DNA of 64,000 bases from Spirochaetales bacterium (GTDB taxonomy: Bacteria > Spirochaetota > Spirochaetia > JABEVK01), in contig JABEVK010000020.1 in assembly GCA_013044245.1 (NCBI GenBank), positions 2,209 to 66,208 of the forward strand, read 5' to 3'. Position numbers and translations under genes: made by a program. Every line of letters starts with the position of its first letter. Position 1 is the stretch's first letter. Below, one piece after another: positions 2,503 to 57,823 of the stretch. The notes beneath the pieces were generated by a model. That model saw only the letters and a program-made list of their open reading frames with translations. It was not told the DNA's origin and did not search any database.

Positions 2503-4152
2503 ATGTCCCCTACATCTCCCTGGCCCACATTAGGCGAATTGTTTGAAAAATCCGTGCGGACTTTTCCTGACAGGCCTTTTTTATCCACCCACATCGGTTC
2601 CGAAAAAAAGATACTCTCCTATGCCGAAGCTCGAGTCCTGAGTCTCCGTTGGGCTGCCCTTTTTATCAGTTTGGGCATTCGACGAGGGCAGTCCATTGCG
2701 TTACGAGGAAAAAACTCACCCTCGTGGGTTTTAGCGTTTTTAGGTTGTGTGCAAGCGGGAGCTGTGGTTGTTCCCCTGGATGCGCAAATCTCGGATGCTG
2801 ATGCCGTCAAGCTTTCAATTGCGGGCGAATGTCGGCTTTTTGTGCATGACTCGGAGTCTAGCGGTGTGGTGTCGTTACTAGATGGAATTCCTTCGGTTAG
2901 TTTCGATACAGAACTGCCGCCAGAGTACGAAATAACTGTTGCCACCGCGCCACACGATATCGCCGCGATTTTGTTTACCAGCGGTACAACGGGTCACCCC
3001 AAAGGGGCGATGTTGACTCACGAGAACTTTACTAGTGACTGTTTGCTAGCTCAGCAACTCCTCAGTATTTCGGCAGAGGATGTTTTTTATGCGCTTTTGC
3101 CACTTCATCATGCTTATACCCTTCTTGCCGTATTCTTAGAAGCGGTGTCGGTGGGGGCCTCGTTGTTGTTTGCCGAAAAGTTAGCCGTCAGTGCTGTTTT
3201 AAGTGACCTCAAGCGGGGAAGTGTCACCATGTTCTTGGCCGTACCTCTTTTGTTCAATAAACTTTTGGATGGCTTGCTCCAAGCAGTAAGAAAAAAAGGT
3301 CTTGTTGTTTGGTTGTCGCTTCGTGCCTTAATGAAATTGTCGGGGATTGTCAAAAAGACCACGGGGCATAATCCCGGGCGAAAATGGTTTCGTTCGGTTC
3401 TTGAGCAAGCGGGACTAGCGTCCGTGCGCGTCTGTATTTCGGGCGGAGGCCCCTTGGCTCCTCAAGTGTTTCGTCGGCTGAACGAACTTGGGCTAGACTT
3501 TGTTCAAGGTTATGGACTTACGGAAACTTCGCCGATTCTTGCCTTAAACCCCGTTGTCAAATACAAGGAAAGCTCAGTGGGCCGGATTCTTCCTGGCGTC
3601 GAGGCGCGTTTGCGAGATACGGATGCGCAAGGACAGGGGGAACTTGTCGTTAAAGGCCCCATGGTTATGAAAGGCTATTTCCGCGATCCCGAAGCCACTG
3701 CTGCTGTTCTTCAAGACGGGTGGCTAAGGACAGGTGATGTTGGCCGCCTCGACGACGAAAATTACCTTTACTTAACAGGACGGGTCAAATCTCTCATCGT
3801 CTCGGAAGGAGGTAAAAATGTTTACCCTGAAGAAATCGAATATGCCTTTCAGATACACGCTGAAATCGAGCAGATTTTGGTTCGTGGCTGGCTAAAAAAC
3901 CCTGAAAAACGCACCGAAGGCATTGAAGCCCTCATTTACCCTAATCCCGACAGTGTCCGCTTTTGGGTGCAAGGGAAACCCGCCGACGATGCCCAGGCCG
4001 CAATTCACGAGGCTGTCGGCAACATTGTTGCACAGGTCAACCGAACGTTGTTGCCGTACCAAAAAATAGACCGTTTTACACTGTTAGAATCCCCGCTCGA
4101 AATGACCACAACTCGTAAGGTTCGCCGACTAGCGCCAGATTCTCACCTCTGA
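2503..4152 (+). CDS. AMP-dependent acyl-CoA synthetase (long-chain fatty acid CoA ligase family)
   Basis: AMP-binding motif LFTSGTTGHPKGAML; GYGLTET; ...TGDVG.LDDENYLYLTGRVKSLI; 549 aa. Confidence 0.85.
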   Translation: MSPTSPWPTLGELFEKSVRTFPDRPFLSTHIGSEKKILSYAEARVLSLRWAALFISLGIRRGQSIALRGKNSPSWVLAFLGCVQAGAVVVPLDAQISDADAVKLSIAGECRLFVHDSESSGVVSLLDGIPSVSFDTELPPEYEITVATAPHDIAAILFTSGTTGHPKGAMLTHENFTSDCLLAQQLLSISAEDVFYALLPLHHAYTLLAVFLEAVSVGASLLFAEKLAVSAVLSDLKRGSVTMFLAVPLLFNKLLDGLLQAVRKKGLVVWLSLRALMKLSGIVKKTTGHNPGRKWFRSVLEQAGLASVRVCISGGGPLAPQVFRRLNELGLDFVQGYGLTETSPILALNPVVKYKESSVGRILPGVEARLRDTDAQGQGELVVKGPMVMKGYFRDPEATAAVLQDGWLRTGDVGRLDDENYLYLTGRVKSLIVSEGGKNVYPEEIEYAFQIHAEIEQILVRGWLKNPEKRTEGIEALIYPNPDSVRFWVQGKPADDAQAAIHEAVGNIVAQVNRTLLPYQKIDRFTLLESPLEMTTTRKVRRLAPDSHL

Positions 4153-9610: not shown

Positions 9611-10527
9611 TGTCTTGGGATACGTGGCGCGAAGCTCAGTACCACAAAAGAGCACAAATCAGCTGGGGAATTTCCTTAGGCGCAGTTCTCGTCACGGTGT
9701 TTGCCCTGTGGTTTGCAGGGCTCAACCACCTCATTCGTCTTAGTGATACCCAAGGCGACGCTATCGCCGTCAAGTTGGGTTCTCCCGACGGTGAAAATGT
9801 TCCGTTGAAGGTCAATCCGATTCCTGACCCTGCCTTTGTTCCGGAACAATCGGTTTCGTCGGTGTCTGAGGCCGTTTCGCAACCACCCCTGCCCAAGGCA
9901 CAAACCTCAAAAGTGACGTCAAGCAAAACTCAAACACCTTCTGAACCCAAGAAGGTTCAAACTCCGCCTCAGCCCCAGCAACAGGTTCGTGTCGTCAAAG
10001 GCAGTGAAACCGGCAATTCGATGGAAACTATCTTTCAGGGAGGGGCCGGGCACGTCGGACGAAGTCTGTATGTGCCAATTTACCTGTATATGCCGCTTCC
10101 CACGAGGCTTTCGCCTTCTTTGATTGCCAAGATTCCTGATAGTCAAGATGGTTTTGAAACCGCCCAACAACGCAAAGATGAGCTTTTGGCCTTTTATCGG
10201 CGCGAAGGGGGCCTTTGGCGTTTGACTGCTCAACCTCCTTTTGAGAGTAGGCCGCGATTGTGGCTGAGCCTCCAGGATGCTGGCTACAACTTAGCAGATG
10301 CCGAGTACAAACGAGGGAATACCCTTACTCCTGTTACTCTTAGTTTTACGCTGTCGGCGCCTCACAATGGTCAACCGCCTGTTCTCCTTAAGGTGACTCT
10401 TGACCGTTCCAGTGGAAACTCCGAGGTCGATGCCGCCGTACTCTATGGCTTTAGGATGTCGGCGTTTGCCAATGGGACCGGTAAAGATGCCCAAGGTTTG
10501 TTCACCTATGACTTTGACGAGAAGTAA
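9610..10527 (+). CDS. TonB/TolA-like energy-transducer candidate (N-terminal TM anchor, Pro/Gln/Lys-rich spacer, C-terminal beta-rich domain)
   Basis: TM ISWGISLGAVLVTVFALWFAGL; spacer PLPKAQTSKVTSSKTQTPSEPKKVQTPPQPQQQ. Positioned third after exbB-exbD with a TGATG overlap. C-terminal domain similarity to TonB is not verified. Confidence 0.45.
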   Translation: MSWDTWREAQYHKRAQISWGISLGAVLVTVFALWFAGLNHLIRLSDTQGDAIAVKLGSPDGENVPLKVNPIPDPAFVPEQSVSSVSEAVSQPPLPKAQTSKVTSSKTQTPSEPKKVQTPPQPQQQVRVVKGSETGNSMETIFQGGAGHVGRSLYVPIYLYMPLPTRLSPSLIAKIPDSQDGFETAQQRKDELLAFYRREGGLWRLTAQPPFESRPRLWLSLQDAGYNLADAEYKRGNTLTPVTLSFTLSAPHNGQPPVLLKVTLDRSSGNSEVDAAVLYGFRMSAFANGTGKDAQGLFTYDFDEK

Positions 10528-12249: not shown

Positions 12250-12312
12250 AGACAGTGATTGTAGTCCGTTTTGGGACTGTGATACAATTCCTGATGTTCA
12301 CGAGGTGTGACA

Positions 12313-12993
12313 ATGTCAGAAGGACGGATCCTCGTTGTCGAAGACGAGGCTAAGATTGCCAATTTTATTCAAAAGGGTCTCAGAGAAGAAGGCTATACCG
12401 TTGAGGTGGCCTCGGATGGTGAGCAAGGTTTACGCCGGGTCCTTGCCGAACCATTTGACTTGATGGTGCTGGATTTGACGTTACCGGAAATGGATGGCCT
12501 TGAGGTTTGTCGTACCGTGCGCGACAAAGGCTTGCTCTTGCCTGTGGTGATGCTCACTGCTCGCGATGGCGTCGAGGACAAGGTCCGTGGCCTTGATATT
12601 GGTGCGGACGATTACGTCACCAAACCCTTTGAATTTGAGGAATTTTTGGCCCGTGTGCGTTCCCACCTTAGAAAGTCCCGCCAAAGTTCCCAAACGGTAC
12701 TCCATATCGCCGATCTGGTGTTGGATACGCGTTCCAGACGCGTGGAACGGGGGGGACGGCTGATTGAACTTTCGTTAAAAGAGATGTCTCTGCTTCAGTT
12801 TCTTATGGAACACCAGGGAGAAGTCTTGTCCCGGCTCGAAATCAGTGAACGGGTTTGGGATATCCATTTTGATACCACCACCAATGTGATTGATGTTCAC
12901 ATTAACCGTCTTCGTAAAAAAGTCGATTATGGGTACACTCCTCAGCTCATCCATACGGTGCGCGGTGCCGGTTATATGCTTAAAGAAGAATGA
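12313..12993 (+). CDS. OmpR-family two-component response regulator
   Basis: ILVVEDE...DLMVLDLTLP receiver domain (D at the phospho-acceptor position); C-terminal winged-helix LRKKVDYGY...IHTVRGAGY. GAGG RBS 7 nt before ATG 12313. Confidence 0.85.
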   Translation: MSEGRILVVEDEAKIANFIQKGLREEGYTVEVASDGEQGLRRVLAEPFDLMVLDLTLPEMDGLEVCRTVRDKGLLLPVVMLTARDGVEDKVRGLDIGADDYVTKPFEFEEFLARVRSHLRKSRQSSQTVLHIADLVLDTRSRRVERGGRLIELSLKEMSLLQFLMEHQGEVLSRLEISERVWDIHFDTTTNVIDVHINRLRKKVDYGYTPQLIHTVRGAGYMLKEE

Positions 12994-16974: not shown

Positions 16975-18390
16975 GTGTCAGAAATTTCGCATTCTCAACG
17001 TCATCAAAAGTTGATTGAGGCGACCAAGCGCATCATGACCGAGCTTGATCTTACCTCCCTTCTTCAAACTCTTATCGACGAAACTTGCTCGGTCGTTGGT
17101 GCTGAGCGAAGCACCTTGTTTCTTATCGATGCAGATCGGGGACAACTATACTCCAAGGTTTTTTTGGGGTCTGGTATTCAAGAGATCCGCTTTGCCGTGG
17201 ACCGGGGCTTGGCAGGGTATGTGGCCCGTACGGGTGAAATTGTGAATATTGCCGACGCCTACGCCGATCCCAGGTTTAACCGAGAGATTGACCAGCAGAC
17301 TGGTTTTCATACGCAGGCTTTGTTAACCATGCCCATCCGGAACAAAGATGCGCACATCATCGGGGTAGTCCAGGTTTTGAATAAAGTGGGGGGCGGTGAG
17401 TTTACAGCCAATGATGTCGATGAGCTAGAAGCCTTTAGCTCACTCATGGCGATCAGCATTGAAAACGCTTTAGCCTACGAAAAGCTCCACCGAACGATGA
17501 AAGCCTTTGAGCTTTTTGTCCCTCACAAGTACCTAAAACGCATTACCAGGGACGGGGTCGAAAGAATCCGTTTGGGTGAAGCGGAAACCTGTGAAGCGAG
17601 TGTGCTTTTTTTAGATATTCGGTCATTTACCACTTTGGCCGAAGGCTTGGAGCCGCAAGAGATCACAGGCTTTTTGAATGACTACTTGGCCGAGATGAAC
17701 GACATCGTTCAATCGCACAATGGTGCCATCGATAAGTACCTGGGCGACGGGTTTATGGCGATTTTTGATCATAAGCACGCAGACGACGCGGTGCAAGCCG
17801 CCCTGGACATTCAACGACACCTGATTCGTTTCAATAAATCTCGCCGGGCAGCAGGTCAAAAAGAAATTTTAGTGGGCATGGGAATATCGAGTGGCTTTGT
17901 TGTGATCGGCACCGTCGGCTCTGTTTCGCGAATGGATTCAACCAGTATTGGTAACCCGGTTTCTGTCGCTAAGCGTGTCGAGACGCTCACTAAACTTTAC
18001 CACACCCGCATCTTGATCAGTCAATCGACCTTTCATGCTTTAGAGGACGCCGGTCAGTACAAAATTCGTGAAGTTGATTCAATTCGGGTTAAGGGACGCG
18101 AAACCCCGGAAGTCATCTACGAGGTATACGACTTCGATGACACGGCTACGGTGGCGAACAAAGATAATGCTTACCCGTTCTTGTTGTCGGGGATTGCCTT
18201 TTACAAAGCCCGCGAGTGGGACAAAGCGCTTTTGTCGTTGACTCGCAGTCTTGACTCCTATCCGGATGACCCGGTGGCGGCGCGGTACATGGAACGTTGT
18301 ATCTTTTTTAAACGTAACCCACCCGAGGCAAACTGGGATGGTATCGTCTCGCCTGACCAAGAGAACTTTTTGGTCTACCGGGTGATGTAA
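16975..18390 (+). CDS. GAF-domain class III adenylate/guanylate cyclase with a C-terminal TPR-like extension
   Basis: N-terminal GAF region (residues ~20-165); cyclase core FLDIRSFTTLAE...DKYLGDGFMAIF...GIGISSGFVVIGTVGS. GTG start with a GGGGGG RBS. Confidence 0.8.
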   Translation: MSEISHSQRHQKLIEATKRIMTELDLTSLLQTLIDETCSVVGAERSTLFLIDADRGQLYSKVFLGSGIQEIRFAVDRGLAGYVARTGEIVNIADAYADPRFNREIDQQTGFHTQALLTMPIRNKDAHIIGVVQVLNKVGGGEFTANDVDELEAFSSLMAISIENALAYEKLHRTMKAFELFVPHKYLKRITRDGVERIRLGEAETCEASVLFLDIRSFTTLAEGLEPQEITGFLNDYLAEMNDIVQSHNGAIDKYLGDGFMAIFDHKHADDAVQAALDIQRHLIRFNKSRRAAGQKEILVGMGISSGFVVIGTVGSVSRMDSTSIGNPVSVAKRVETLTKLYHTRILISQSTFHALEDAGQYKIREVDSIRVKGRETPEVIYEVYDFDDTATVANKDNAYPFLLSGIAFYKAREWDKALLSLTRSLDSYPDDPVAARYMERCIFFKRNPPEANWDGIVSPDQENFLVYRVM

Positions 18391-18425
18391 GAGCAGAGAT
18401 AGAACACGGGGGATAGAACATATCT

Positions 18426-19073
18426 ATGGACAGCTTGGGTTCGGGTTTACCGGTCGCGTTGTCTGGGTTAGGGCGGCGGCGTCAACTTGGGGCCGGAATG
18501 ATTTTGTTTCTTCAAGATGACCCCGCCGCTTATTGCTTTTTTGTCGAAGCCGGTGAGCTTTCGTTGCGTTTGTTGTCTCCGTCGGGTCATGAGGTGGAAC
18601 TAACGAAAATTGAAGCCGGTGATTGGTGTGCCGAAGCCCTGTTATTTGCCGAAAGTACGTATCCAGCTCAGGCCGTCGTTACCAAAGACTGTAGGTTGGT
18701 GCAGATTCACCGCGATGAAATTTTAAAAAATACCAACAGTGAAGTGACTGCTTTCTTTTTGAGACTTTTGGCCTACAAATGTTTAAGGCTCAATAAACGT
18801 ATCGAGCAATTAACCATCCTTGGGGCTCGCGAGCGCATCGTTCAATATATTCTTGGTTTGTGCCCTGCCCATAACGATGGCTGTCCGGGCAAACTTTCGC
18901 ACTGCCGCTTTCCCTTTCCGAAAAAGAAACTGGAAATTGCTCAGGAGCTGGGGATGACTCCCGAGACGCTTTCACGCATTTTTCGTCAGCTTGAAGGTGA
19001 AAACCTCATCGAGATCGAGGGGGCTACGCTTGGGGTGGTTTCGTGTGCGCGGCTTCGGCAGTCACAACAATAA
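18426..19073 (+). CDS. Crp/Fnr-family transcriptional regulator (cNMP-binding domain plus C-terminal HTH)
   Basis: 215 aa; beta-roll region GAGMILF.QDDPAAYCFFVEAGELSL; HTH LEIAQELGMTPETLSRIFRQLEGENLIEI. Confidence 0.8.
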   Translation: MDSLGSGLPVALSGLGRRRQLGAGMILFLQDDPAAYCFFVEAGELSLRLLSPSGHEVELTKIEAGDWCAEALLFAESTYPAQAVVTKDCRLVQIHRDEILKNTNSEVTAFFLRLLAYKCLRLNKRIEQLTILGARERIVQYILGLCPAHNDGCPGKLSHCRFPFPKKKLEIAQELGMTPETLSRIFRQLEGENLIEIEGATLGVVSCARLRQSQQ

Positions 19074-19131
19074 AAAAAAAAGCCAGCACCCGCATAGTGG
19101 CGCAAAACATTTCAGAACTTTTTGCGGCTTC

Positions 19132-19145
19132 TTGATCATGGTCAA
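19132..19145 (+). promoter_or_regulatory. FNR/CRP-type box TTGAT-CATG-GTCAA centred ~61 bp upstream of the hemerythrin-like ATG
   Basis: Inverted TTGAT/TTGAC half-sites with a 4-bp spacer. Immediately downstream of the crp/fnr-like gene. Confidence 0.4.
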
Positions 19146-19199
19146 GGAAATCCTTCGGAAAGGCCATTAAGCTGACCGTGTATCGAAACGGAGGAGCTT

Positions 19200-19814
19200 A
19201 TGGACGTTACCAAAAAACTGATGCAAGAGCATCAGCTGATATTACGCTACATTGCCTTGATCGGGCGAATGGCTGCCACGTGGGAGCCTGGCGTCAACGA
19301 TGACGAATATTTTTCTACTTTACGACAGATTGTTGATTTTATCAAAACCTACGCTGATCATTTCCATCACGCCAAAGAAGAAGATATTCTTTTTCGTCAT
19401 CTTGAAGGTCCCGGGGTGCTGACACACTGCAATCCTATTCCTGTTATGCTCTTTGATCACGAAGAAGGGCGCACTCTGACGGCGCGGTTACTCGAAGCCA
19501 TCGAGACTCAAAACCGAAACGACGCGCTTGCCTACGCCCAAGGATGGGGAGAACACCTGACCGGGCACATTTATAAAGAGGATAATGTTTTGTATCCCAT
19601 GGCCGAAGAGGGTTTATCTGACTTTGAAAAGTCGGTAGTTCTTCAGGAATATCAGGCGGCCGAAGAATCGCAAAAGGCAGGGTTAGAGGCCTTTTACGAA
19701 AAGCTTTTAACCGATTTAGAGAGCCAGCAAAAACTGTTGATGCGCGCGCAAGGCCCTGTCGATTCCAGGCCACCTTTGGTTCAGCTACACCGCGGTTGGC
19801 TTCCCAAAGTTTGA
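19200..19814 (+). CDS. Hemerythrin HHE cation-binding domain protein
   Basis: H..xxxE motifs: HFHHAKEEDILF, FDHEEGRTL, HIYKEDNVLYP. GGAGGAG RBS. Confidence 0.7.
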   Translation: MDVTKKLMQEHQLILRYIALIGRMAATWEPGVNDDEYFSTLRQIVDFIKTYADHFHHAKEEDILFRHLEGPGVLTHCNPIPVMLFDHEEGRTLTARLLEAIETQNRNDALAYAQGWGEHLTGHIYKEDNVLYPMAEEGLSDFEKSVVLQEYQAAEESQKAGLEAFYEKLLTDLESQQKLLMRAQGPVDSRPPLVQLHRGWLPKV

Positions 19815-21315: not shown

Positions 21316-22437
21316 TTAGAGGGTGCGGGCTGCTTCTTCGTTGAACATGATAGCTTTTTCAGTATCCATGTCAAAGAAGTGAGCTTTTTCAATGTTAGGA
21401 ACAAAGTGGGCCACATCCCCAACATGGAACTGATAGTTGGGATCAACAGTGGCAACCATCTGGTGGTTCTGGGTTCCGACATAGAGGTGGATTTCGGCAC
21501 CGAGGGGCTCAACCACTTCAATGTTAGTACTCATGTTGTTCTTAGCACCGGCTTGAGGCTGGTACATCAGGTTCTCGGGGCGTATACCGAAGAGAATCTG
21601 CTTGCCAACATAGGGGCGAAGGCCTTCGGCCTGGGCACCTTCGACAGTCAGGCTAAAAGAGCCTTCTTCCAGAGTAACTTTACCATTTTTATCGACGACG
21701 TCCACGGTCATAATATTCATGGGAGGAGATCCGATGAATCCGGCCACGAAGCGGTTTATGGGGTGATTGTACAGGCCCAAGGGGGTACCGATCTGCTGAA
21801 TCAAACCATCTTTCAGAACAACGATCTTGTCGCCCATGGTCATAGCCTCGACCTGGTCGTGCGTAACGTAGATCATTGTTGCCTGCAGGCGGGTGTGCAG
21901 AGCCGAAATTTCAGCGCGCATCTGAACACGGAGCTTGGCGTCCAGGTTGGACAAGGGTTCGTCAAAAAGGAAGACCTTGGGCTTGCGGACAATGGCGCGG
22001 CCGACAGCCACGCGCTGACGCTGACCACCGGACAGAGCCTTGGGCTTCCGGTCGAGCAAAGCTTCGATATCGAGAATCTGAGCCGCTTCTTTAACGCGGT
22101 TCTGAATTTCCTGTTGAGGGTACTTGCGGATGCGTAGTCCAAATGCCATGTTCTCGAACACGGTCATGTGGGGGTACAAAGCGTAGTTTTGGAAAACCAT
22201 CGCAATGTCACGGTCTTTCGGCGCCAGATCGTTGACGACCTTTCCGTCGATATAGAGTTCACCACCGGAGATGTCTTCCAGACCGGCAATCATACGAAGA
22301 GTCGTAGTTTTGCCACAACCGGAAGGTCCGACGAAAACGCAGAATTCTTTGTCGTTGATGTGAATATTCACACTGTCGACGGCTTTGACATCACCTTCGT
22401 AAAGTTTGGTAATGTTCTTGAGAACGACTTCAGCCAT
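21316..22437 (-). CDS. ABC transporter ATP-binding protein, MalK/UgpC type (carbohydrate importer ATPase with C-terminal TOBE-like domain)
   Basis: Walker A GPSGCGKTT; signature LSGGQRQRVAVGRA; Walker B VFLFDEPLSNLD; 373 aa with a regulatory C-terminal domain. Confidence 0.88.
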   Translation of the reverse strand: MAEVVLKNITKLYEGDVKAVDSVNIHINDKEFCVFVGPSGCGKTTTLRMIAGLEDISGGELYIDGKVVNDLAPKDRDIAMVFQNYALYPHMTVFENMAFGLRIRKYPQQEIQNRVKEAAQILDIEALLDRKPKALSGGQRQRVAVGRAIVRKPKVFLFDEPLSNLDAKLRVQMRAEISALHTRLQATMIYVTHDQVEAMTMGDKIVVLKDGLIQQIGTPLGLYNHPINRFVAGFIGSPPMNIMTVDVVDKNGKVTLEEGSFSLTVEGAQAEGLRPYVGKQILFGIRPENLMYQPQAGAKNNMSTNIEVVEPLGAEIHLYVGTQNHQMVATVDPNYQFHVGDVAHFVPNIEKAHFFDMDTEKAIMFNEEAARTL

Positions 22438-46015: not shown

Positions 46016-46169
46016 GAAATCTCCTTTAATTTCGAAACCACTTCTCTGAGAACGTATAAAGTTACATTGTATCACAAATCAGAGATGGGGTAACTTGAAA
46101 AGTTTGGCAAGGGGGACCAAGATAGAACCAAACACAGAGGGGTAAACCTTTGTGTTCAAGGAGGCCTGT

Positions 46170-46688: not shown

Positions 46689-47081
46689 TTGAGTGAACCG
46701 GTTCTTGTCGGCCTGTTATTTGCCGATCGTGTCATTATTGAAAACAACGGAAAACGAGGGATCATTGGCACGTTCAATGTCTTTCATTCGCAAAGCTTTC
46801 CCGCCCTGTTCCCGCCATGGTTTATCTACGCGGCGGTCACCAACTTAACGGGTAAGCATAGCTTTGCGTTGACGCTTGTGCACGAGGAGTCTCAACAAGT
46901 CGTTGTCCCCTTTAACGGCGACTTTGAATCGCCTGAAGCGGAGGTTGTCGTTGAGCTAACACCAGCCCTCATGAACGTGACCTTTCCCCGCCCTGGAACC
47001 TATTTGCTCAGCTTTAGCGTGGACGGTGAACTATTAGGAACCCGAATTTTGTACGTTCGTCAGGCGCCACCCGGTCGATAA
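46689..47081 (+). CDS. Hypothetical protein (130 aa, beta-rich)
   Basis: TTG start preceded by AAAGGGGA. Convergent with, and overlapping by 22 nt, the 3' end of the mksE-like gene. Confidence 0.4.
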   Translation: MSEPVLVGLLFADRVIIENNGKRGIIGTFNVFHSQSFPALFPPWFIYAAVTNLTGKHSFALTLVHEESQQVVVPFNGDFESPEAEVVVELTPALMNVTFPRPGTYLLSFSVDGELLGTRILYVRQAPPGR

Positions 47082-47656
47082 GTCGCTAAACGAGTCTTGA
47101 GGTCATCGAGCTGCGCCGCACCCAGCTTGACCTTGAGGATGCGCATGACCTGGTAGACCTTGCGACCCTGGTCGCCTGGGTCAGGCGAAGCTGTCTCGCG
47201 TAAGAAGCCCAGCTTAACCATGTGGCCCAGCGATCGTTCAAACTGTTTCCAAGCGCGAGCTTCATCAAATCGGCCCTCTGTATAGGGAGCTAGGCGGGCT
47301 TGCAGGTCACGAGCTGTTATAAATAGGTCACGGCTGTCGGTATTGGTGAGGTCAAACTCTTCTAGGGCGTCACGCAGGATTACCGCTAAAACGGTGGCGT
47401 CATAGCCCAAGGGGGCCCGTTTCACTAACCGTGGCAGAGTATCTTCTTCGCCCCCAGGCTGAGTCAAATACGCCAGGCCCTCTTCTGTTACCAGCATCAG
47501 TCTCAACCCGATACGAGCAAACCACTCTTGGACAGCTCCAGTGTTATCCAGCAAGAGGGCCCACAGCTTGATATCATCGTCGTAAAGGGGACCTTGAAGC
47601 AGTTTAAGAATGACAGAGGCGTACGAGAGCACCGGAAGCTCAGTTTCATCAGACAT
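47060..47656 (-). CDS. MksE/JetB-like (DUF4194-type) condensin accessory subunit
   Basis: ~198 aa. YASVILKLLQGPLYDDD.KLWALLLDNTGAVQEWFARIGLRLMLVTEEGLAYL matches the conserved MukE/MksE-like core. ATG 47656 overlaps the upstream stop (ATGTCTGA). Confidence 0.6.
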   Translation of the reverse strand: MSDETELPVLSYASVILKLLQGPLYDDDIKLWALLLDNTGAVQEWFARIGLRLMLVTEEGLAYLTQPGGEEDTLPRLVKRAPLGYDATVLAVILRDALEEFDLTNTDSRDLFITARDLQARLAPYTEGRFDEARAWKQFERSLGHMVKLGFLRETASPDPGDQGRKVYQVMRILKVKLGAAQLDDLKTRLATYRPGGA

Positions 47657-49091
47657 GGCCAAACTCCACTCGGGGGGATCGAAGCCGAAAGTGCTCGTCC
47701 ACCGGCAAAAAGGTTGTCTCGTCAGGATTAACGTGTCCTGTGGGCGAAAATGACGCAATTTCTAAATACGCAAGAACCTCAGATAGTCCTTGTTCGGGGG
47801 GCCAGCGCGTAAGAATTTCGTCTAGGGTCGCATGGCCTTGGCGAGTACTCTCGGCCACGCGACGGCGAAGTTTAAGAAGGTCAATACTAAACTGACCGGT
47901 GAGGACGGCACGACTTTCAGCCGGTAGAGTCTGGCTTTCTCGCTGGGGGCGACGGTCCTTCCAACGGCCTTCGGGAGGTTCGCTCCAGGGGCGGTCGGCT
48001 ACCATGCTCAACTCAGCATCTCCTTCGACTTCCCAAATAAAGTCAGCGGGGGGCGAGGCATGGTGACGGGCAAACTCTTCTTTCAACGAGGCCAAAAGCG
48101 TCCGAAGCCGTTCATGATGATGAATGTCTTGTTCCGATAAAAGTTTATTCAGCTTTTCGGCGAGCAACCTGTTGCCGGCGATCACTTTGCGACCGGCTAA
48201 ATGCAGATGCGTTTTGAGATGACGTAAAACTTCGTCATGAGGACTACGATTTTGCGCATCGAGCAAGGCAAAAAGTTCGCCTAAGCGCTCGGGGAGTGAC
48301 TCCTGTTCGCCTTCACGAATCAGGTGTTCCCAAAAGGCATAAAAACTGCGGCCCTGAGGACTCTGGCGAAGTTCTTCGGCGGCGTCCAAGGTATAACCAA
48401 GAATATCGCCGCGACTAAAACCTTCTTGCGCTTGTTGTTCATAAATCCGTCGGACCAAAGCCTGAAAGTTTTGCTCAACCTGTTTAAAATCTCCCAACAG
48501 GGCCCGTGACAAGCGGTTGAGGGCGCTAACACGTTCTTCGAGCTGAACATCCGTCCACTGTGGGGGCTCAAGACCGTTCTTGAGCTTTTGAATTTCTAAG
48601 TCCAAGGCGGCTTTCTTTTTTTCGAGACGCCGGATGCGGGACTGCGGGTCAGGGTCAAGCTTCAAGACCAAGTCATCTAACCGCTGAAGGATTTCATCAA
48701 ACCGGCTTTCGGTCCCGACTAGAGTGTCGTCGAGGGTTTCGATCCATTGGAACACCCGTTGTGTCCATGGGGTGGCTTCAACCCAAACTTGGCCATTTTC
48801 GTCGGCAAATCGCCTCAGGTAACGAATCTCGTCGCGGCACCAATGGTCCAAGAGTAGTTTGGCACGGCGGTGACGATCACCCTGCGCCAAGGGAATTTCG
48901 TCAGCTTCGAGACCGCATTCTTCAAAAAAGCTCGCTAGACGCCCTTCTAAAAGGTCGCTTTCGACCATAGGAATAGGGTCTTCATAGAACATTTTTCGAA
49001 AAAAGAGCAAAAGAAAGAGCACGTGGGGGTTACGCAAGAGGCGCAAAGAAGGGTTGTCCGTCAAGCTTCGGCGTAAACGCTCGGCATCCAT
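47649..49091 (-). CDS. MksF/JetA-like (DUF3375-type) kleisin-like subunit
   Basis: 480 aa. N-terminal NPSLRLLRNPHVLFLLLFFRKMF...LDHWCRDEIRYLRRFADENGQVWVEATPWTQRVFQWIETL follows the pattern I recall for JetA/MksF N-terminal domains; coiled-coil middle. 8-nt overlap with the mksE-like gene. Confidence 0.6.
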   Translation of the reverse strand: MDAERLRRSLTDNPSLRLLRNPHVLFLLLFFRKMFYEDPIPMVESDLLEGRLASFFEECGLEADEIPLAQGDRHRRAKLLLDHWCRDEIRYLRRFADENGQVWVEATPWTQRVFQWIETLDDTLVGTESRFDEILQRLDDLVLKLDPDPQSRIRRLEKKKAALDLEIQKLKNGLEPPQWTDVQLEERVSALNRLSRALLGDFKQVEQNFQALVRRIYEQQAQEGFSRGDILGYTLDAAEELRQSPQGRSFYAFWEHLIREGEQESLPERLGELFALLDAQNRSPHDEVLRHLKTHLHLAGRKVIAGNRLLAEKLNKLLSEQDIHHHERLRTLLASLKEEFARHHASPPADFIWEVEGDAELSMVADRPWSEPPEGRWKDRRPQRESQTLPAESRAVLTGQFSIDLLKLRRRVAESTRQGHATLDEILTRWPPEQGLSEVLAYLEIASFSPTGHVNPDETTFLPVDEHFRLRSPRVEFGHV

Positions 49092-50909: not shown

Positions 50910-52109
50910 TCATGGCTGGGTGGGGTGCGCTGCTTTCCAGGCGGCTACCAAAGGAGGTAGGGGCGCCCCATCCGGAACAAAGATCATCGCCGCTGAGTTA
51001 ATGCAGTAGCGTAGACCTGTTCCTTCAGGAAAAGACGGTGAAGCGTCTGGCCCATCGTTAAAGACATGCCCCAGGTGACTACCGGACGAAGAATCTAGAA
51101 CCTCAATTCGGCTCATTCCATGACTATCGTCCTGCCGTAAGATAATACCACGGCCGGTGATGGGTTTTGAGAAGCTGGGCCACCCGCACCCGGAATCAAA
51201 TTTATCTTGCGAGCGAAAGAGCGGTTCCCCCGTGGCGGCACTGTAGTAGGTGCCCGGGCGATGTTCGTTCCAGGTAGCGCCGGTAAAGGGGGCCTCGGTG
51301 TCTGCACGGCGGAGAACTCCCCAGGCTTGGTTTCCCAGTAATTTTTTCCAATCGGTATCAGAATGATGCACGGGAACGACGGGAGTCTGGCTGGGTTGGA
51401 GAACAATAAGCCCATGCCAAACCTTGGTCGGTGTATCCGTAGCGGCAGGCGACCCTGGTTTAACGAGTTCCGGATACATGCTCACCAGACGACTTAACTT
51501 GGGAAGATCGCATTGTACGATATAGGGCGAGTCTGGGTGCTCTTCCAAATAATGTTGATGATAAGCTTCGGCCGAATAAAACTTCTTCAAAGGAACGACT
51601 TGCGTAACAATGGGCCTGGGAAAAACTTTCTTTTCGGTAAGAATCTGAATGTATTGTTTTGCCTGCTGAGCCTGCGCGTCAGATTCGGTGAAGATGGCTG
51701 AGCGGTAATTGGTGCCCACGTCAGGACCTTGTCTGTTGAGCTGGGTCGGGTCATGCACCACAGAAAAAAAGATTTTGAGAAGTGTCCCGTACGAAATAAT
51801 CTGGGGATCAAAGGTCACTTGAACCGATTCGGCGTAACCGGTTGTTCCCGTGCTAACTTCCTCGTAGGTGGGGTTAGGGGTCGTACCCCCCGCATACCCC
51901 GAAACTGCTGAGGTAACACCTTTTAAGGATTCAAAAACAGCCTCTACACCCCAAAAACAACCCCCGGCAAAAACGGCTGTTTCGAGCGAAACCGGTGAAG
52001 CCGTCGAGGGAGGGGGATCAGGAAACGTCGCTGGGGCTGGGGATGAAGCGGAAGATCGGGTACAAGCTGTCATAAACAAAAAAAGGACGGTCAAGGTCTT
52101 ATAACGCAC
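50910..52109 (-). CDS. msrAB: Secreted bifunctional peptide-methionine sulfoxide reductase MsrA-MsrB fusion
   Basis: Signal/lipobox MRYKTLTVLFLFMTAC; MsrA motif GGCFWGVEAVF; MsrB motif region SGCGWPSF...HLGHVFNDGP. GTG start with a GGAGG RBS. Confidence 0.85.
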   Translation of the reverse strand: MRYKTLTVLFLFMTACTRSSASSPAPATFPDPPPSTASPVSLETAVFAGGCFWGVEAVFESLKGVTSAVSGYAGGTTPNPTYEEVSTGTTGYAESVQVTFDPQIISYGTLLKIFFSVVHDPTQLNRQGPDVGTNYRSAIFTESDAQAQQAKQYIQILTEKKVFPRPIVTQVVPLKKFYSAEAYHQHYLEEHPDSPYIVQCDLPKLSRLVSMYPELVKPGSPAATDTPTKVWHGLIVLQPSQTPVVPVHHSDTDWKKLLGNQAWGVLRRADTEAPFTGATWNEHRPGTYYSAATGEPLFRSQDKFDSGCGWPSFSKPITGRGIILRQDDSHGMSRIEVLDSSSGSHLGHVFNDGPDASPSFPEGTGLRYCINSAAMIFVPDGAPLPPLVAAWKAAHPTQP

Positions 52110-52182
52110 CGTCGCACCTCCGTAATAAAAATAGAGCGCGGGGGGTCACTCGTCAACAAAGATTAGTAAATAAATCGGAAAT

Positions 52183-52323
52183 TGTGATCGCAAAACGTCC
52201 TGATTGAGTCTTGAAACTGTTTCAACTGTGATTATATCACGACGCAAAATAGACTCAAAGTTCTGCAGATTGAATCACAAAGTTGGCGAGTTTGTGATTG
52301 CAAACAACTGTCAACAAATCACA
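52183..52323. promoter_or_regulatory. Cluster of five TGTGAT(T/C) heptamers in both orientations within 140 bp upstream of msrAB
   Basis: TGTGAT at 52183, 52227 and 52293 (plus orientation) and ATCACA at 52274 and 52318. One copy forms the palindrome TGTGA-TTATA-TCAC, and a 15-nt element TGTGATyGCAAAMHA repeats at 52183 and 52293. Confidence 0.4.
52231..52258 (-). promoter_or_regulatory. Extended -10 promoter (TTGAGT-N16-TGaTATAAT) reading toward msrAB, embedded in the TGTGAT cluster
   Basis: Minus strand: TTGAGT (plus 52253-52258), TGATATAAT (plus 52231-52239). The -10 is flanked by the GTGAT/ATCAC palindrome. Confidence 0.45.
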
Positions 52324-52379
52324 AAGTTTTTTTTGGGTAAATCAAGAGGTTTTTTTGCCTTGAAGCGGGGGGGGAGTTA

Positions 52380-52452
52380 TGGACGATAGTGGATTCGAAC
52401 CACCGACTTCTACCGTGTGAAGGTAGCACTCTAACCGCTGAGTTAATCGTCC
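52380..52452 (-). tRNA. tRNA-Val (anticodon CAC)
   Basis: Minus-strand sequence GGACGATTAACTCAGCGGTTAGAGTGCTACCTTCACACGGTAGAAGTCGGTGGTTCGAATCCACTATCGTCCA folds as a cloverleaf (7-bp acceptor, GGTTCGAATCC T-arm, anticodon loop UUCACAC). CCA is not encoded. Confidence 0.9.
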
Positions 52453-52458
52453 GTGGGG

Positions 52459-53784
52459 TTAATATACCGGGTTGCCTCGGCTTTCGTCAAGTTCGGCCAG
52501 TAATGCCGTCTCGGGGATTTCCCAAACTCGTAAGAGGGTATCTTTGCCGCGAATTTTGATTTCACCATGGTCGATGCCTGCCAAGGATTCCCAGTGACCT
52601 TCACGCCACACTTCATCCGATACCAAGAGACTCGTGCCAAGGTCTTTGTTGAGGCTTTCAAGGCGGCTGGCCGTGTTAACGACGTTTCCGATCACCGTGT
52701 ACTCGCGACGTTGAAGTGAACCAACCGTACCGGTAACAGCTGGTCCCGAATGTATTCCAATTCCAATCCTAGTCGGGGGTGTTTGGCCAAGCCGCACGCG
52801 CTCGGCTAACTCTGAGCGCAACTCCAGAGCGGCTCTTAGGGCATTTTGGGCCGAATTGCCTTCGTGAAGAGGCGCACCAAAGACCGCCAAAAAACCGTCC
52901 CCCAGGAACTTATTGACAATACCGTGGTTTCTGTTGATGACATCAATCATAAAGTCAAAAAGATGATTCAAATAATTCACGACTTCTTCGGGCGATCGCT
53001 TTTCGGCAAAGCCAGTAAAGTTACGAATGTCCAGAAAAAGAATGGTCACCGGAAGGTTTTCGCTGAGCAATTCTTGCGGTTGGTCGAGCAGTTTTTGAAC
53101 GACAGCGGGCGAAACATGTTGCCCAAAGAGGTTCATGATGCGGTTTTTATCTTCAAGACTTCGCCAGGCCGCAAAAACACTGGCGCGAACACGGCCACTG
53201 ACAAACGCTGAAAGAATCCCCGCCAGCAACAACAGGCCGTCGCGCATAAGCATCAAGGCAAAATCGGGCGTCTGGAGAGGCAAGAGAAGGACCCCGGCCA
53301 CCAAATATTCTACGGTGGCGACGGCAGACGTGAAAATAGTCAGGAGAGGGTTCATCCGAAGGGCAGAAAGGATAATGAACAAGAAATACAGCGCATAAAA
53401 GGGGCTAGACATTGCCGAGGAGGGGTCAAAGGAATGGGCGGCCACCGCAAGGGCGATAGTAGGAATCGAAGTTTCTAAAAGGGCGTTGCCGAACCGGACA
53501 AAGGGCGGCAAGGCGTGGCCTTTTTTTAGACGGCGCGTCAAAAAAAAGAAGAATGAAATTTCATAGGCGGTAAATAAGCTTGACCCGAGAAAAGAGGGCA
53601 GAGTAGGAAAGCGATGCGAAAACAGATGGTCAATCAGCCCCGGAAAAGCCAGGTGAAGCAGGGTGTTAGCAAACAAAAAGAGGGCGAGGACAGCCAAGAT
53701 GAGCGCCGAGCGTTGGCGTTCACTGCGGATCATCTGAGCTTCGCCTTCGTTTTCGATCCTATTAAACCAAGTGTTCTGAGTCAT
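52459..53784 (-). CDS. Membrane-anchored class III adenylate/guanylate cyclase (N-terminal multi-TM domain)
   Basis: Cyclase core LFLDIRNFTGFAE...NKFLGDGFLAVFG...GIGIHSGPAVTGTVGS; ~6 N-terminal TM helices. Confidence 0.8.
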   Translation of the reverse strand: MTQNTWFNRIENEGEAQMIRSERQRSALILAVLALFLFANTLLHLAFPGLIDHLFSHRFPTLPSFLGSSLFTAYEISFFFFLTRRLKKGHALPPFVRFGNALLETSIPTIALAVAAHSFDPSSAMSSPFYALYFLFIILSALRMNPLLTIFTSAVATVEYLVAGVLLLPLQTPDFALMLMRDGLLLLAGILSAFVSGRVRASVFAAWRSLEDKNRIMNLFGQHVSPAVVQKLLDQPQELLSENLPVTILFLDIRNFTGFAEKRSPEEVVNYLNHLFDFMIDVINRNHGIVNKFLGDGFLAVFGAPLHEGNSAQNALRAALELRSELAERVRLGQTPPTRIGIGIHSGPAVTGTVGSLQRREYTVIGNVVNTASRLESLNKDLGTSLLVSDEVWREGHWESLAGIDHGEIKIRGKDTLLRVWEIPETALLAELDESRGNPVY

Positions 53785-56050: not shown

Positions 56051-57823
56051 TTACCAGCGGTTTTTCCAAGTCAGCACCGTTTGCAGGTCGCTTACCGGCG
56101 CGCTGATGATATGATTTTGATTCCAAACTGTTGCCCAATCAAGGCTCAAACTTAGACTCGACTCGGAGCCACCGGGGGCTAACAGTGTCCCTTGTAAGAG
56201 GTCGGGGCCCGCTTCGGCGGTAAGAATCACCTGCTGGGTCAAAACGGCTGTGCCAGTGGGGGATACCCAGCTCAAGTACCCGGTCGTTCCGTAAAGAGGG
56301 TTGGTGGTGTTCGTCCAGGGGTCGGTTTTTAAGGTCGGTGCGGGGGTATAAATCGAATTGTCCCCTTGTGCGGTGAAGGGCGCCGTTAACGAAAGCTTCC
56401 AACGGCGGGGGTTTTCAGCCTTAAGCGACACGACTGCTGTGATACTGTCGGGACCTGCCGCCAAACCAAAAGGACGACCGACGAGAAAAATTCCCTCGCC
56501 TCCCGAGCCTTGGTACGTGGTCTGGTAGCGCTGATAATACACGGCGTTGACATCGGGGTTTAAGTACAGAAACGGATCGGCATAGGTCCCTTCGGTTTGA
56601 AAGGACCACACGGTGTCACCGACGGTCCAGACCCGGCGCAAACCGGCAAGGTAGGCCATCGCCAGCGGGTTGGCATCGCCAAACTCGGCACTTTTAAAGG
56701 CGGTACGGATGTAGTCGCCATAGATTTGGCCGTAGAGGTTCCAACCGGGAGCCGCCGCCCAGTCAAGGTCAAGGGCAATATCGGAATTGGCGTTGGATTG
56801 CAAAAGCCAATTATGACCGGGAAAGAACGGGTTGAAATACTGGGGGTCAAAACTACTCATGTCCACCAATAGGATTTCGCTGACGGTGAGGTTTAAGCGG
56901 CTAAAAAGACGAAAGTCAAGGCGGTGATCGATAAAGTAGGTGGTCGAGGCCGGCATGTAGGTGGCCCCATTGTTGTTGTTAGCACTAGCTTGCTGATCAA
57001 GCGGGGTAGTTTTGTAATACCCTCCGTAGTAGGTCTGTCCCGGCGTGATGGCGTAGTCTGAAAAGGGGATCACCAGAAAGTTGTAGGTAAAGCCCTTCCA
57101 CCAGGTCGAAAAGCCCAACTGATCGACCGTGCCTAAACTGGTAGAAAGGGCGGCGTTGGTAAAGCCTGCCTGGGTGCCTACCTTGCCTCGAAGAAAGCGC
57201 ACATCCCAATGGTCACCGCCGAACACCATTCCGGCGGTGTCCGGCCACATCCACTCCAGTTCAGAGCCAGACAGGGGAATGTTCGAAACGGGTTGAAGTT
57301 GATCAAGGTCGGTGAAGTAGTCTTTTTTCAAATCGAGGTCAAACCCGGCCCAGACCCAATTGCCCACGCTGGCTTCGAGTTTTATGTCGTACAAATTGGG
57401 GCGGGTGTTGTAGCCGTCATACCACGGGAGCAACGTCCCCAGCGAGGCAAAACCCTGGGGGTTGAAATCCTGGGTTATGCGGGCTGAAAAAGCACCCTCA
57501 TGATACGTTTGAGGGCGCCCCAGGATGGTCGTGCGAATAGCGGAGGCTAACTGGGCTTGGCCTCGGTCAAATTGTGACGAATCCAAAAGACTCAGTTCCC
57601 ACAAAACCTGGCGTATGGTAGACGGCGCAAACCGTGTCGGTAAAGTTTGTCCCTGCGAGGCGAACAAATCGGCCAACCACCCATAAACAGGAGAATCGGC
57701 GGCGACAGGGCGTTCTAGGTCTTGGGCCGTTCCTTGAGGGGCTTCTTGCGCTGTAAGGGGAGCGACCCAGCATAAAACTCCGCCAAGAACAAAAAAGGTG
57801 AAGGCAATGAGTGATTTTCGCAT
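56051..57823 (-). CDS. Large outer-membrane protein (hypothetical, 590 aa), upstream of and co-directional with the GT4 gene
   Basis: Signal peptide MRKSLIAFTFFVLGGVLCWVAPLTAQEA; Gly/Tyr/Trp-rich beta-strand pattern; ends ...VLTWKNRW. Confidence 0.5.
   Translation of the reverse strand: MRKSLIAFTFFVLGGVLCWVAPLTAQEAPQGTAQDLERPVAADSPVYGWLADLFASQGQTLPTRFAPSTIRQVLWELSLLDSSQFDRGQAQLASAIRTTILGRPQTYHEGAFSARITQDFNPQGFASLGTLLPWYDGYNTRPNLYDIKLEASVGNWVWAGFDLDLKKDYFTDLDQLQPVSNIPLSGSELEWMWPDTAGMVFGGDHWDVRFLRGKVGTQAGFTNAALSTSLGTVDQLGFSTWWKGFTYNFLVIPFSDYAITPGQTYYGGYYKTTPLDQQASANNNNGATYMPASTTYFIDHRLDFRLFSRLNLTVSEILLVDMSSFDPQYFNPFFPGHNWLLQSNANSDIALDLDWAAAPGWNLYGQIYGDYIRTAFKSAEFGDANPLAMAYLAGLRRVWTVGDTVWSFQTEGTYADPFLYLNPDVNAVYYQRYQTTYQGSGGEGIFLVGRPFGLAAGPDSITAVVSLKAENPRRWKLSLTAPFTAQGDNSIYTPAPTLKTDPWTNTTNPLYGTTGYLSWVSPTGTAVLTQQVILTAEAGPDLLQGTLLAPGGSESSLSLSLDWATVWNQNHIISAPVSDLQTVLTWKNRW

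Follow-up and report, generated by a model that had tools for sequence, protein, structure and literature searches.

In the window, by which we mean the whole 64-kb stretch of DNA that was analysed, the intergenic region upstream of msrAB contains a cluster of TGTGAT repeats. We interpret it tentatively, at a probability of roughly 45%, as a set of phased operators at which one sequence-specific DNA-binding protein would bind, centred on a strain-specific distal promoter, P2. A cis-regulatory role is the best reading of the array, because the repeats are ordered, non-random and wrapped round a strong extended -10 promoter that points toward msrAB.

The msrAB gene (50910-52109, minus strand, GTG start at 52109) encodes fused PMSR and SelR domains behind a lipoprotein-type signal peptide, in agreement with the first-pass annotation, which had called the product secreted. 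The protein is a 100% match to NNM53543.1 from a 'Spirochaetales bacterium' MAG. Beyond one 90%-identity cluster, the nearest MsrAB homologues are at most 59% identical and belong to other spirochaetes. A gap of 270 bp, which contains the array, separates msrAB from its upstream boundary, the tRNA-Val(CAC) gene (52380-52452, minus strand). Upstream of the tRNA gene lies a gene for a membrane class III cyclase (52459-53784, minus strand). The other neighbours are Dus, glycosyltransferase, dCTP deaminase, DUF3783 and rhomboid genes. No regulator gene was found adjoining the array, and no binding protein was matched to it. A good promoter match for tRNA-Val, TTGACG-18-TATATT, lies at 52461-52490 on the minus strand, inside the cyclase gene at its 3' end. 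Downstream of tRNA-Val no terminator was called, so that read-through from the tRNA gene toward msrAB is possible. Farther downstream of the msrAB-dcd-DUF3783 block, genes for MksE-like (DUF4194) and DUF3375 proteins, components of MksBEF-type condensin/defence systems, were seen at 47060-49091. Another ORF in the window, of 590 aa (56051-57823, minus strand), had no Pfam match at an E value of 0.001 or better.

Five copies of TGTGAT are present where the first-pass annotation had placed them, three on the plus strand (52183, 52227 and 52293) and two on the minus strand (52274 and 52318). It had called the repeat a heptamer; the unit common to all five is a hexamer, and a heptamer, AATCACA, does occur in four copies (52227, minus; 52273, plus; 52293, minus; 52317, plus). 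A longer element that it gave as 15 nt proved to be 13 nt long (TTGTGATYGCAAA, at 52182 and 52292), as position 15 differs. The array unit therefore exceeds the hexamer, and AACTTTGTGATT likewise occurs as two perfect 12-mers. One of these, S5 (52317-52328, minus strand), holds TGTGAT and the plus-strand heptad AATCACA and is repeated 44 bp away as S4 (52273-52284, minus strand). S3 (52288-52304, plus strand; GAGTTTGTGATTGCAAA) merges both longer versions of the motif, with a third AACTTTGTGATT-type copy nested within it, and forms perfect 9-bp inverted repeats with S4 (N9) and with S5 (N17). A variant repeat, AACTTTGAGTCT (52251-52262, minus strand), is in register with S4, 22 bp downstream of it, and overlaps the P2 -35 hexamer. 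S2 (52226-52241, plus strand; CTGTGATTATATCACG) is a GTGAT-N3-ATCAC palindrome over the P2 -10 element and discriminator; the reported TGTGA-N5-TCAC pair over TGaTATAAT on the minus strand is found there, at 52227-52240. Repeat copies thus cover both the P2 -35 and the P2 -10/discriminator. S1 (52182-52194, plus strand; TTGTGATCGCAAA) lies 44 bp from S2, at the junction of 202 bp absent from the window. Segmental or tandem duplication is ruled out as the origin of the repeats, since they include inverted copies and are separated by unrelated DNA.

Across the whole window, TGTGAT occurs 20 times against 20.1 expected, so the hexamer is not enriched globally, and 5 of the 20 fall inside 141 bp. 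When the 270-bp intergenic region was shuffled with its dinucleotides preserved, just 41 of 5000 shuffles contained any hexamer in at least five copies, bearing out the earlier view that the half-site density is above chance. Any 9-mer reached at least three copies in 11 of 5000 shuffles of the same region, where AATCACAAA is observed three times. That the motif might be common in intergenic DNA, a possibility raised with the first-pass annotation, was checked: global enrichment is absent, and 665 kb of fetched loci contain no other TGTGAT cluster of more than two copies per 150 bp. A search of the 64-kb window with the 13-mer, the 12-mer and TTGTGAT found nothing above chance outside the msrAB region and no other intergenic array, so no regulon is visible within it. 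No second copy of the array module was found in the window or in any fetched locus. All of these array statistics are post hoc.

The copies are also phased. Same-strand spacings are 44, 66 and 44 bp, all multiples of 22, and the variant copy is 22 bp from S4. When the minus strand is written in rows of 22 nt, the forward copies all stand at offset 0 and the reverse copies (nATCACA) at offsets 8-14. Under random placement, the probability that all three spacings are multiples of 22 is 7e-5, or 0.0045 when any period from 9 to 24 is allowed. The start-to-start distance from the P2 -35 to its -10 is also 22 bp. Part of the register could therefore reflect repeated promoter-like hexamers (TTGTGA, TGCAAT) rather than sites for a factor.

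A promoter scan found two minus-strand promoters upstream of msrAB. The distal one, P2 (52231-52258; TTGAGT-16-TG-a-TATAAT), matches at 10 of 12 positions and has all the sequence features of a sigma-70 extended -10 promoter: a -35-like hexamer, a spacer within 16-18 nt, TGn and a TATAAT-like -10. Its predicted start site is at about 52222-52224. A perfect 7-1-7 palindrome, TTGAAAC-t-GTTTCAA, read from the sequence at 52211-52225, spans this start site; its RNA fold was not significant, and the relatives have a different inverted repeat, ATCGA...TCGAT, at nearly the same position. The proximal promoter, P1 (52128-52156; TTGACG-17-TATTTT), is followed by a ribosome-binding site, GGAGGTG (52115-52121), and the GTG start at 52109. 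The P1 hexamers and their spacing are invariant in 6 of 6 related upstream regions but the sequence of the spacer is not, which is the footprint of a working promoter. An AT-rich TTTACTAA block and the ribosome-binding site are also invariant there. P1 is probably the main msrAB promoter, as no other upstream element is conserved throughout the close relatives. The strong extended -10 element reading toward msrAB in the first-pass annotation is thus real, but it is probably not that of the main promoter. Elsewhere in the window, TGTGATACAAT, with an extended -10 of the form TG-n-TACAAT, occurs at 12278-12288 (plus strand) before an OmpR-type response regulator gene and at 46067-46077 (minus strand) at the start of a LolA-like gene. 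Both are likely promoters, so TGTGAT can arise simply within the extended -10 promoters of this organism.

Nine related loci (L082-L090) were recovered from the same MsrAB cluster. All of them share the invariant P1 features, but upstream of P1 the alleles diverge between strains. GTDB genomes offered no usable orthologous msrAB upstream region, the nearest MsrAB from outside the clade being 58% identical, in another context and without the motif, and the msrAB start region of the clade had 0 matches in a metagenome scan. In L083 and L086, the upstream DNA is unrelated to the array and has palindromes of its own made from GCGATAATT and AATTATCGC. These are nested (in L083 at 2739-2839, and also in L086), with direct copies 21 bp apart. 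L082, L085 and L087-L090 have instead a region of about 500 bp with two palindromes of 26-28 bp (CAACCTGTTAA...TTAACAGGTTG) 305 bp apart. In the form CAACCTGTTAA-N-TTAACAGGTTGA, the palindromes lie at 1119-1145 and 1424-1450 in L085 and at 126-153 and 430-457 in L087. Each of them overlaps a TTGAC/TTGAG -35-like hexamer, and the pair brackets a segment homologous to the array. The array (52181-52359) aligns with this segment without gaps over 179 nt, at 59% identity to L085 and 58% to L087. The window lacks both palindromes as well as 202 bp between the module and P1, and S1 sits on the junction.

Conservation within the module is partial. Across three lineages CAACTTTG, the P2 -35 block CTTTGAGTC and the TCAC/GTGA cores at S1, S2, S3 and S5 are conserved, and CTTTGAGTC is invariant among the window, L082, L085 and L087. 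In the relatives, the S5 core is kept as GGTGAC, the S3 core as GTCAC(A/G) and the S2 core as GTCACCATC, and the S1 position reads (A/G)TCACCATC. At S4, AACTTTG is kept but TGTGAT is replaced by TGAGGT or TGAGAT. The relatives have GTCAC(C) where the window has ATCACA, and in the places of S2 and S1 they carry a perfect GTCACCATC pair with a spacing of 44 bp. The copies thus resemble each other more within a lineage than across lineages. The P2 -10 in the relatives is AACAGT or TACCGT, compared with a perfect TATAAT here, so P2 strength is specific to this strain. Because the cores and their spacing are kept while TGTGAT and the -10 are not, the site positions are old, and the exact motif and the strength of P2 strain-specific. 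By a hand count on the alignment, the hexamer positions are 70-73% identical versus 56-57% for the rest of the module, a weak enrichment in an alignment that may have been partly seeded by the TCAC/GTGA cores. The module contains no conserved small ORF: stop codons break every frame in one lineage or another, and the mismatches with L085 lack a 3-base periodicity (27/26/21).

These comparisons also bear on a serious rival, that the array has no dedicated function. The repeats would then be neutral leftovers of promoter-like hexamers, small conversions and a deletion junction, and P2 would be fortuitous or a recent gain. The identity of about 59% between the module and its relatives is, in our judgement, roughly that of unconstrained DNA, given that msrAB itself is 87% (L085) and 83% (L087) identical at the nucleotide level. 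The loss of TGTGAT in the relatives, the position of S1 at the 202-bp deletion junction and the hypervariability of the whole tRNA-Val/msrAB region among strains are all consistent with such a relic, and the copy-number statistic alone is borderline once about 50 intergenic regions per window are allowed for. On the other hand, a copy number this high and an exact 22-bp register are both improbable, and largely independent of each other. Unrelated DNA separates the 12-mers and 9-mers, which are themselves perfect, and core positions and gapless spacing have been retained across the three lineages. We consider neutral origin somewhat unlikely.

Each strain has a different gene content between tRNA-Val (or another upstream feature) and the regulatory region of msrAB, from which we conclude that this interval is a recombination hotspot. 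For example, L082 has a truncated AhpC-TSA_2 gene (1402-2545), L085 a full AhpC-TSA_2 gene (159-976), L088 an Anthrone_oxy gene and small ORFs (2-1000), and L083 a PIN toxin pair and an 81-aa secreted ORF (700-2689). The window has no genes in this interval. Within the one 90% MsrAB cluster, there are at least three upstream forms, unrelated or strongly diverged, and each of them repeats a short motif of its own, at intervals of 21-22 or 44 bp or as long-range palindrome pairs; the form in L082, L085 and L087 combines GTCACCATC pairs with two AACCTGTTAA-N6-TTAACAGGTT palindromes. It is conceivable, although quite unlikely, that the msrAB upstream region of the clade consists of interchangeable regulatory cassettes above one invariant core promoter. 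If each array has a cognate binder, regulatory input to an oxidative-repair gene would be swapped at the strain level, in a hotspot linked to tRNA-Val.

In the first-pass annotation, the repeats were connected with CRP because TGTGA is the CRP-family half-site. TGTGAT equals the extended CRP half-site; the E. coli CRP consensus is AAATGTGATCTAGATCACATTT. Bound by the Crp/Fnr protein encoded at 18426-19073 or by another CRP, they would link msrAB to the cyclases. CRP dimers need TGTGA-N6-TCACA, a 22-bp dyad site. No such site occurs in 52110-52380, even with two mismatches, and the sole near-pair, the S2 near-palindrome, has N5 spacing and TCACg instead of TCACA. The array as observed is therefore unsuitable for a CRP dimer. 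When gaps of 4-8 were allowed, exact TGTGA/TCACA pairs in the window were found at 12885 and 22359 only, and its CRP-type sites (16 versus 20.8 expected) are not enriched. The class III cyclase gene just upstream speaks for a CRP-family regulator, as does the position of S1, whose centre lies about 64 bp before the predicted P1 start and thus near the class I position; the relatives, however, carry GTCACC and not TGTGA.

An Arg in the CRP recognition helix reads TGTGA, and the FNR/DNR type, which lacks it, reads TTGAT-N4-ATCAA. The Crp/Fnr protein has cNMP-binding and HTH_Crp_2 domains and is the only cNMP-HTH protein of the window. It lacks a CRP-type Arg-Glu...Arg recognition helix: its helix reads PETLSR versus PETFSR in DNR of Pseudomonas aeruginosa (3dkw), its best solved relative. 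From its sequence, its predicted specificity is of the FNR/DNR type. An FNR-type box, TTGATCATGGTCAA (TTGAT-N4-GTCAA), lies at 19132-19145, downstream of its gene and 55 bp before the hemerythrin start; no FNR/DNR box, TTGAT-N4-ATCAA with at most one mismatch, occurs in 52110-52380 upstream of msrAB. With no N6 site, a DNR-type helix and a box of the protein's own elsewhere, the CRP link is not supported, and we regard control by CRP as very unlikely. The array shares with CRP sites the TGTGAT with T-rich 5' flanks, a promoter-overlapping copy and an adjacent cyclase gene, but it differs in having no inverted partner at the obligatory 6 bp and in having copies 19-47 bp apart in mixed orientation. 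The presence of TGTGAT-rich DNA beside genes for a cyclase and a Crp/Fnr protein does not by itself make a CRP regulon, and an easy mis-annotation is corrected here.

Several features around the DNR-like regulator were noted separately. Together with a GAF-domain class III cyclase gene (16975-18390) and the hemerythrin gene (19200-19814), its gene forms a cluster (16975-19814) that, by predicted content, looks like a small NO/O2-sensing unit. At residues ~145-160, the dimerisation helix of the regulator is separated from the HTH by a Cys-rich insertion, CPAHNDGCPGKLSHC. It exceeds the aligned DNR segment in both length and Cys content and could be a metal or redox site. TTGAT-N4-ATCAA with at most one mismatch occurs 7 times in the window (7569, 13681, 14971, 19132, 20013, 25777 and 57293) versus 1.9 expected, a number reached in 0 of 100 shuffles; all but the hemerythrin site are apparently within ORFs. 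The sequence at 22359-22372 is a perfect 14-bp palindrome, TGTGAATATTCACA (TGTGA-N4-TCACA), near the 5' end of the ORF at 21316-22437, and may be an operator of some other factor.

Another class of binder would be an architectural or array-binding protein: IHF/HU-like, a ribbon-helix-helix protein of the omega/ParR type, or a recombinase whose arm-type sites would have been left by an element that used the adjacent tRNA-Val. Omega, the RHH ParB protein of pSM19035, binds 7-10 contiguous 5'-WATCACW-3' heptads; contiguity is required, and a lone heptad is bound weakly (PMC9499535). The four perfect AATCACA heptads of the array fit this heptad and, as in omega arrays, are direct and inverted and overlap a promoter. 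In contrast to omega arrays, they are chromosomal and dispersed on a 22-bp lattice, the nearest being 19 bp apart, so that not even two are contiguous, and no integrase, RHH, par or ParA gene was found among the neighbours. The region abuts the 3' end of a tRNA gene where gene content is strain-variable; the module, however, stays with msrAB and not with the tRNA or the variable genes, and it occurs once in the window and fetched loci. For IHF, AATCACAAAGTTG at S4 is one base off the consensus WATCARNNNNTTR, but all 4 exact matches in the window fall outside the msrAB region. We therefore judge an architectural role improbable. Several AATCACA heptads were also seen beside a palindrome on unrelated metagenome contigs (L099 at 10321-10392 and L138 at 2957-3030; also L167 and L175). 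Some of these are contiguous (AATCACAAATCACAAAA), and together they resemble a true omega-like array of another organism.

The inverted 9-mers could also act at the RNA level, as alternative hairpins of a terminator or attenuator, in tRNA-Val read-through or in a plus-strand transcript that would end at a run of eight T (52327-52334). On the plus strand, TTTGTGATT-N17-AATCACAAA is followed by this run, and the middle arm is able to pair with either neighbour. Nevertheless, the fold energies are no better than those of shuffles (z -0.17 and +0.98), Rfam finds the tRNA only, no plus-strand promoter or gene feeds in, and the terminator scan made no call. Nor are the arms kept as pairs in the relatives. 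A role in RNA is extremely unlikely, and a riboswitch, an sRNA and a terminator are ruled out by the Rfam result and the non-significant z-scores. A metagenome scan for AATCACAAA-N9-TTTGTGATT gave 93 matches; most were AT-rich hairpins or terminators from unrelated DNA, and they had no context in common. The N17 version gave 7 viral matches.

An origin of replication and a sigma-54 site were rejected. No TTATCCACA-like box with at most one mismatch occurs in the region and the GC skew is positive across the whole window, against an oriC/DnaA cluster. A sigma-54 reading of TTGTGATTGCA fails because the GG-to-GC spacing, measured by eye, amounts to 13 nt at S3 and to 11 nt at S1; the required spacing is 10. 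LytTR-type direct repeats, 9-mers 21-22 bp apart, may be a further parallel: AAAGTT resembles the LytTR core, but no LytTR gene was seen.

For the operator array, we infer protein binding, use of P2 and its repression as follows. The TGTGAT copies would be the cores of a recognition element of ~12 bp, with a consensus of about AAnTTTGTGATT, that occurs six times in both orientations and in strict 22-bp (two helical turns) register over ~150 bp. A binder, not encoded nearby, would occupy one face of the DNA, with one copy over the P2 -35, one over the -10/discriminator, three more upstream and one downstream. With copies over both promoter elements and others flanking them, the likeliest action would be cooperative occlusion or looping that leads to P2 repression. 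P2 may then add inducible msrAB transcription on top of the conserved P1, reading through P1. An oxidative-stress regulator, the other suggestion of the first-pass annotation, is a possible binder. In support of operators, the copy number exceeds that of shuffles with no comparable cluster in 665 kb, perfect 12-mers and 9-bp inverted repeats stand amid unrelated DNA, and the -35 block and 4 of 5 site cores are kept in a gapless alignment. Against them, half-site centres 18-47 bp apart misfit a simple dimer, P1 rather than P2 is conserved, and TGTGAT itself is not.

If the repeats are a true operator set, they define a recognition motif and a target promoter for a regulator in a spirochaete lineage that is uncultured. 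Near-identical strains would then differ by a rewired control of a periplasmic protein-repair enzyme, through loss of two palindromic operators, gain of a perfect -10 and a different repeated motif.

Features of this kind are familiar, and the array adds a new case. As a promoter, P2 is no different from other extended -10 sigma-70 promoters; it has TTGAGT, a spacer of 16 nt and a perfect TATAAT with TG one base before it; its strength is not conserved, and it lies upstream of the conserved P1. Multi-operator repressors (DeoR, GalR, LacI looping) and ParR-parC iteron blocks that flank a promoter likewise have several phased copies on one helical face. One copy covers the core promoter, the rest lie on either side of it, and integral helical turns suit cooperativity or looping. 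Those systems use palindromic operators or 10-11-bp iterons and a known protein, whereas the unit of the msrAB array is asymmetric and is repeated in both orientations 22 bp apart.
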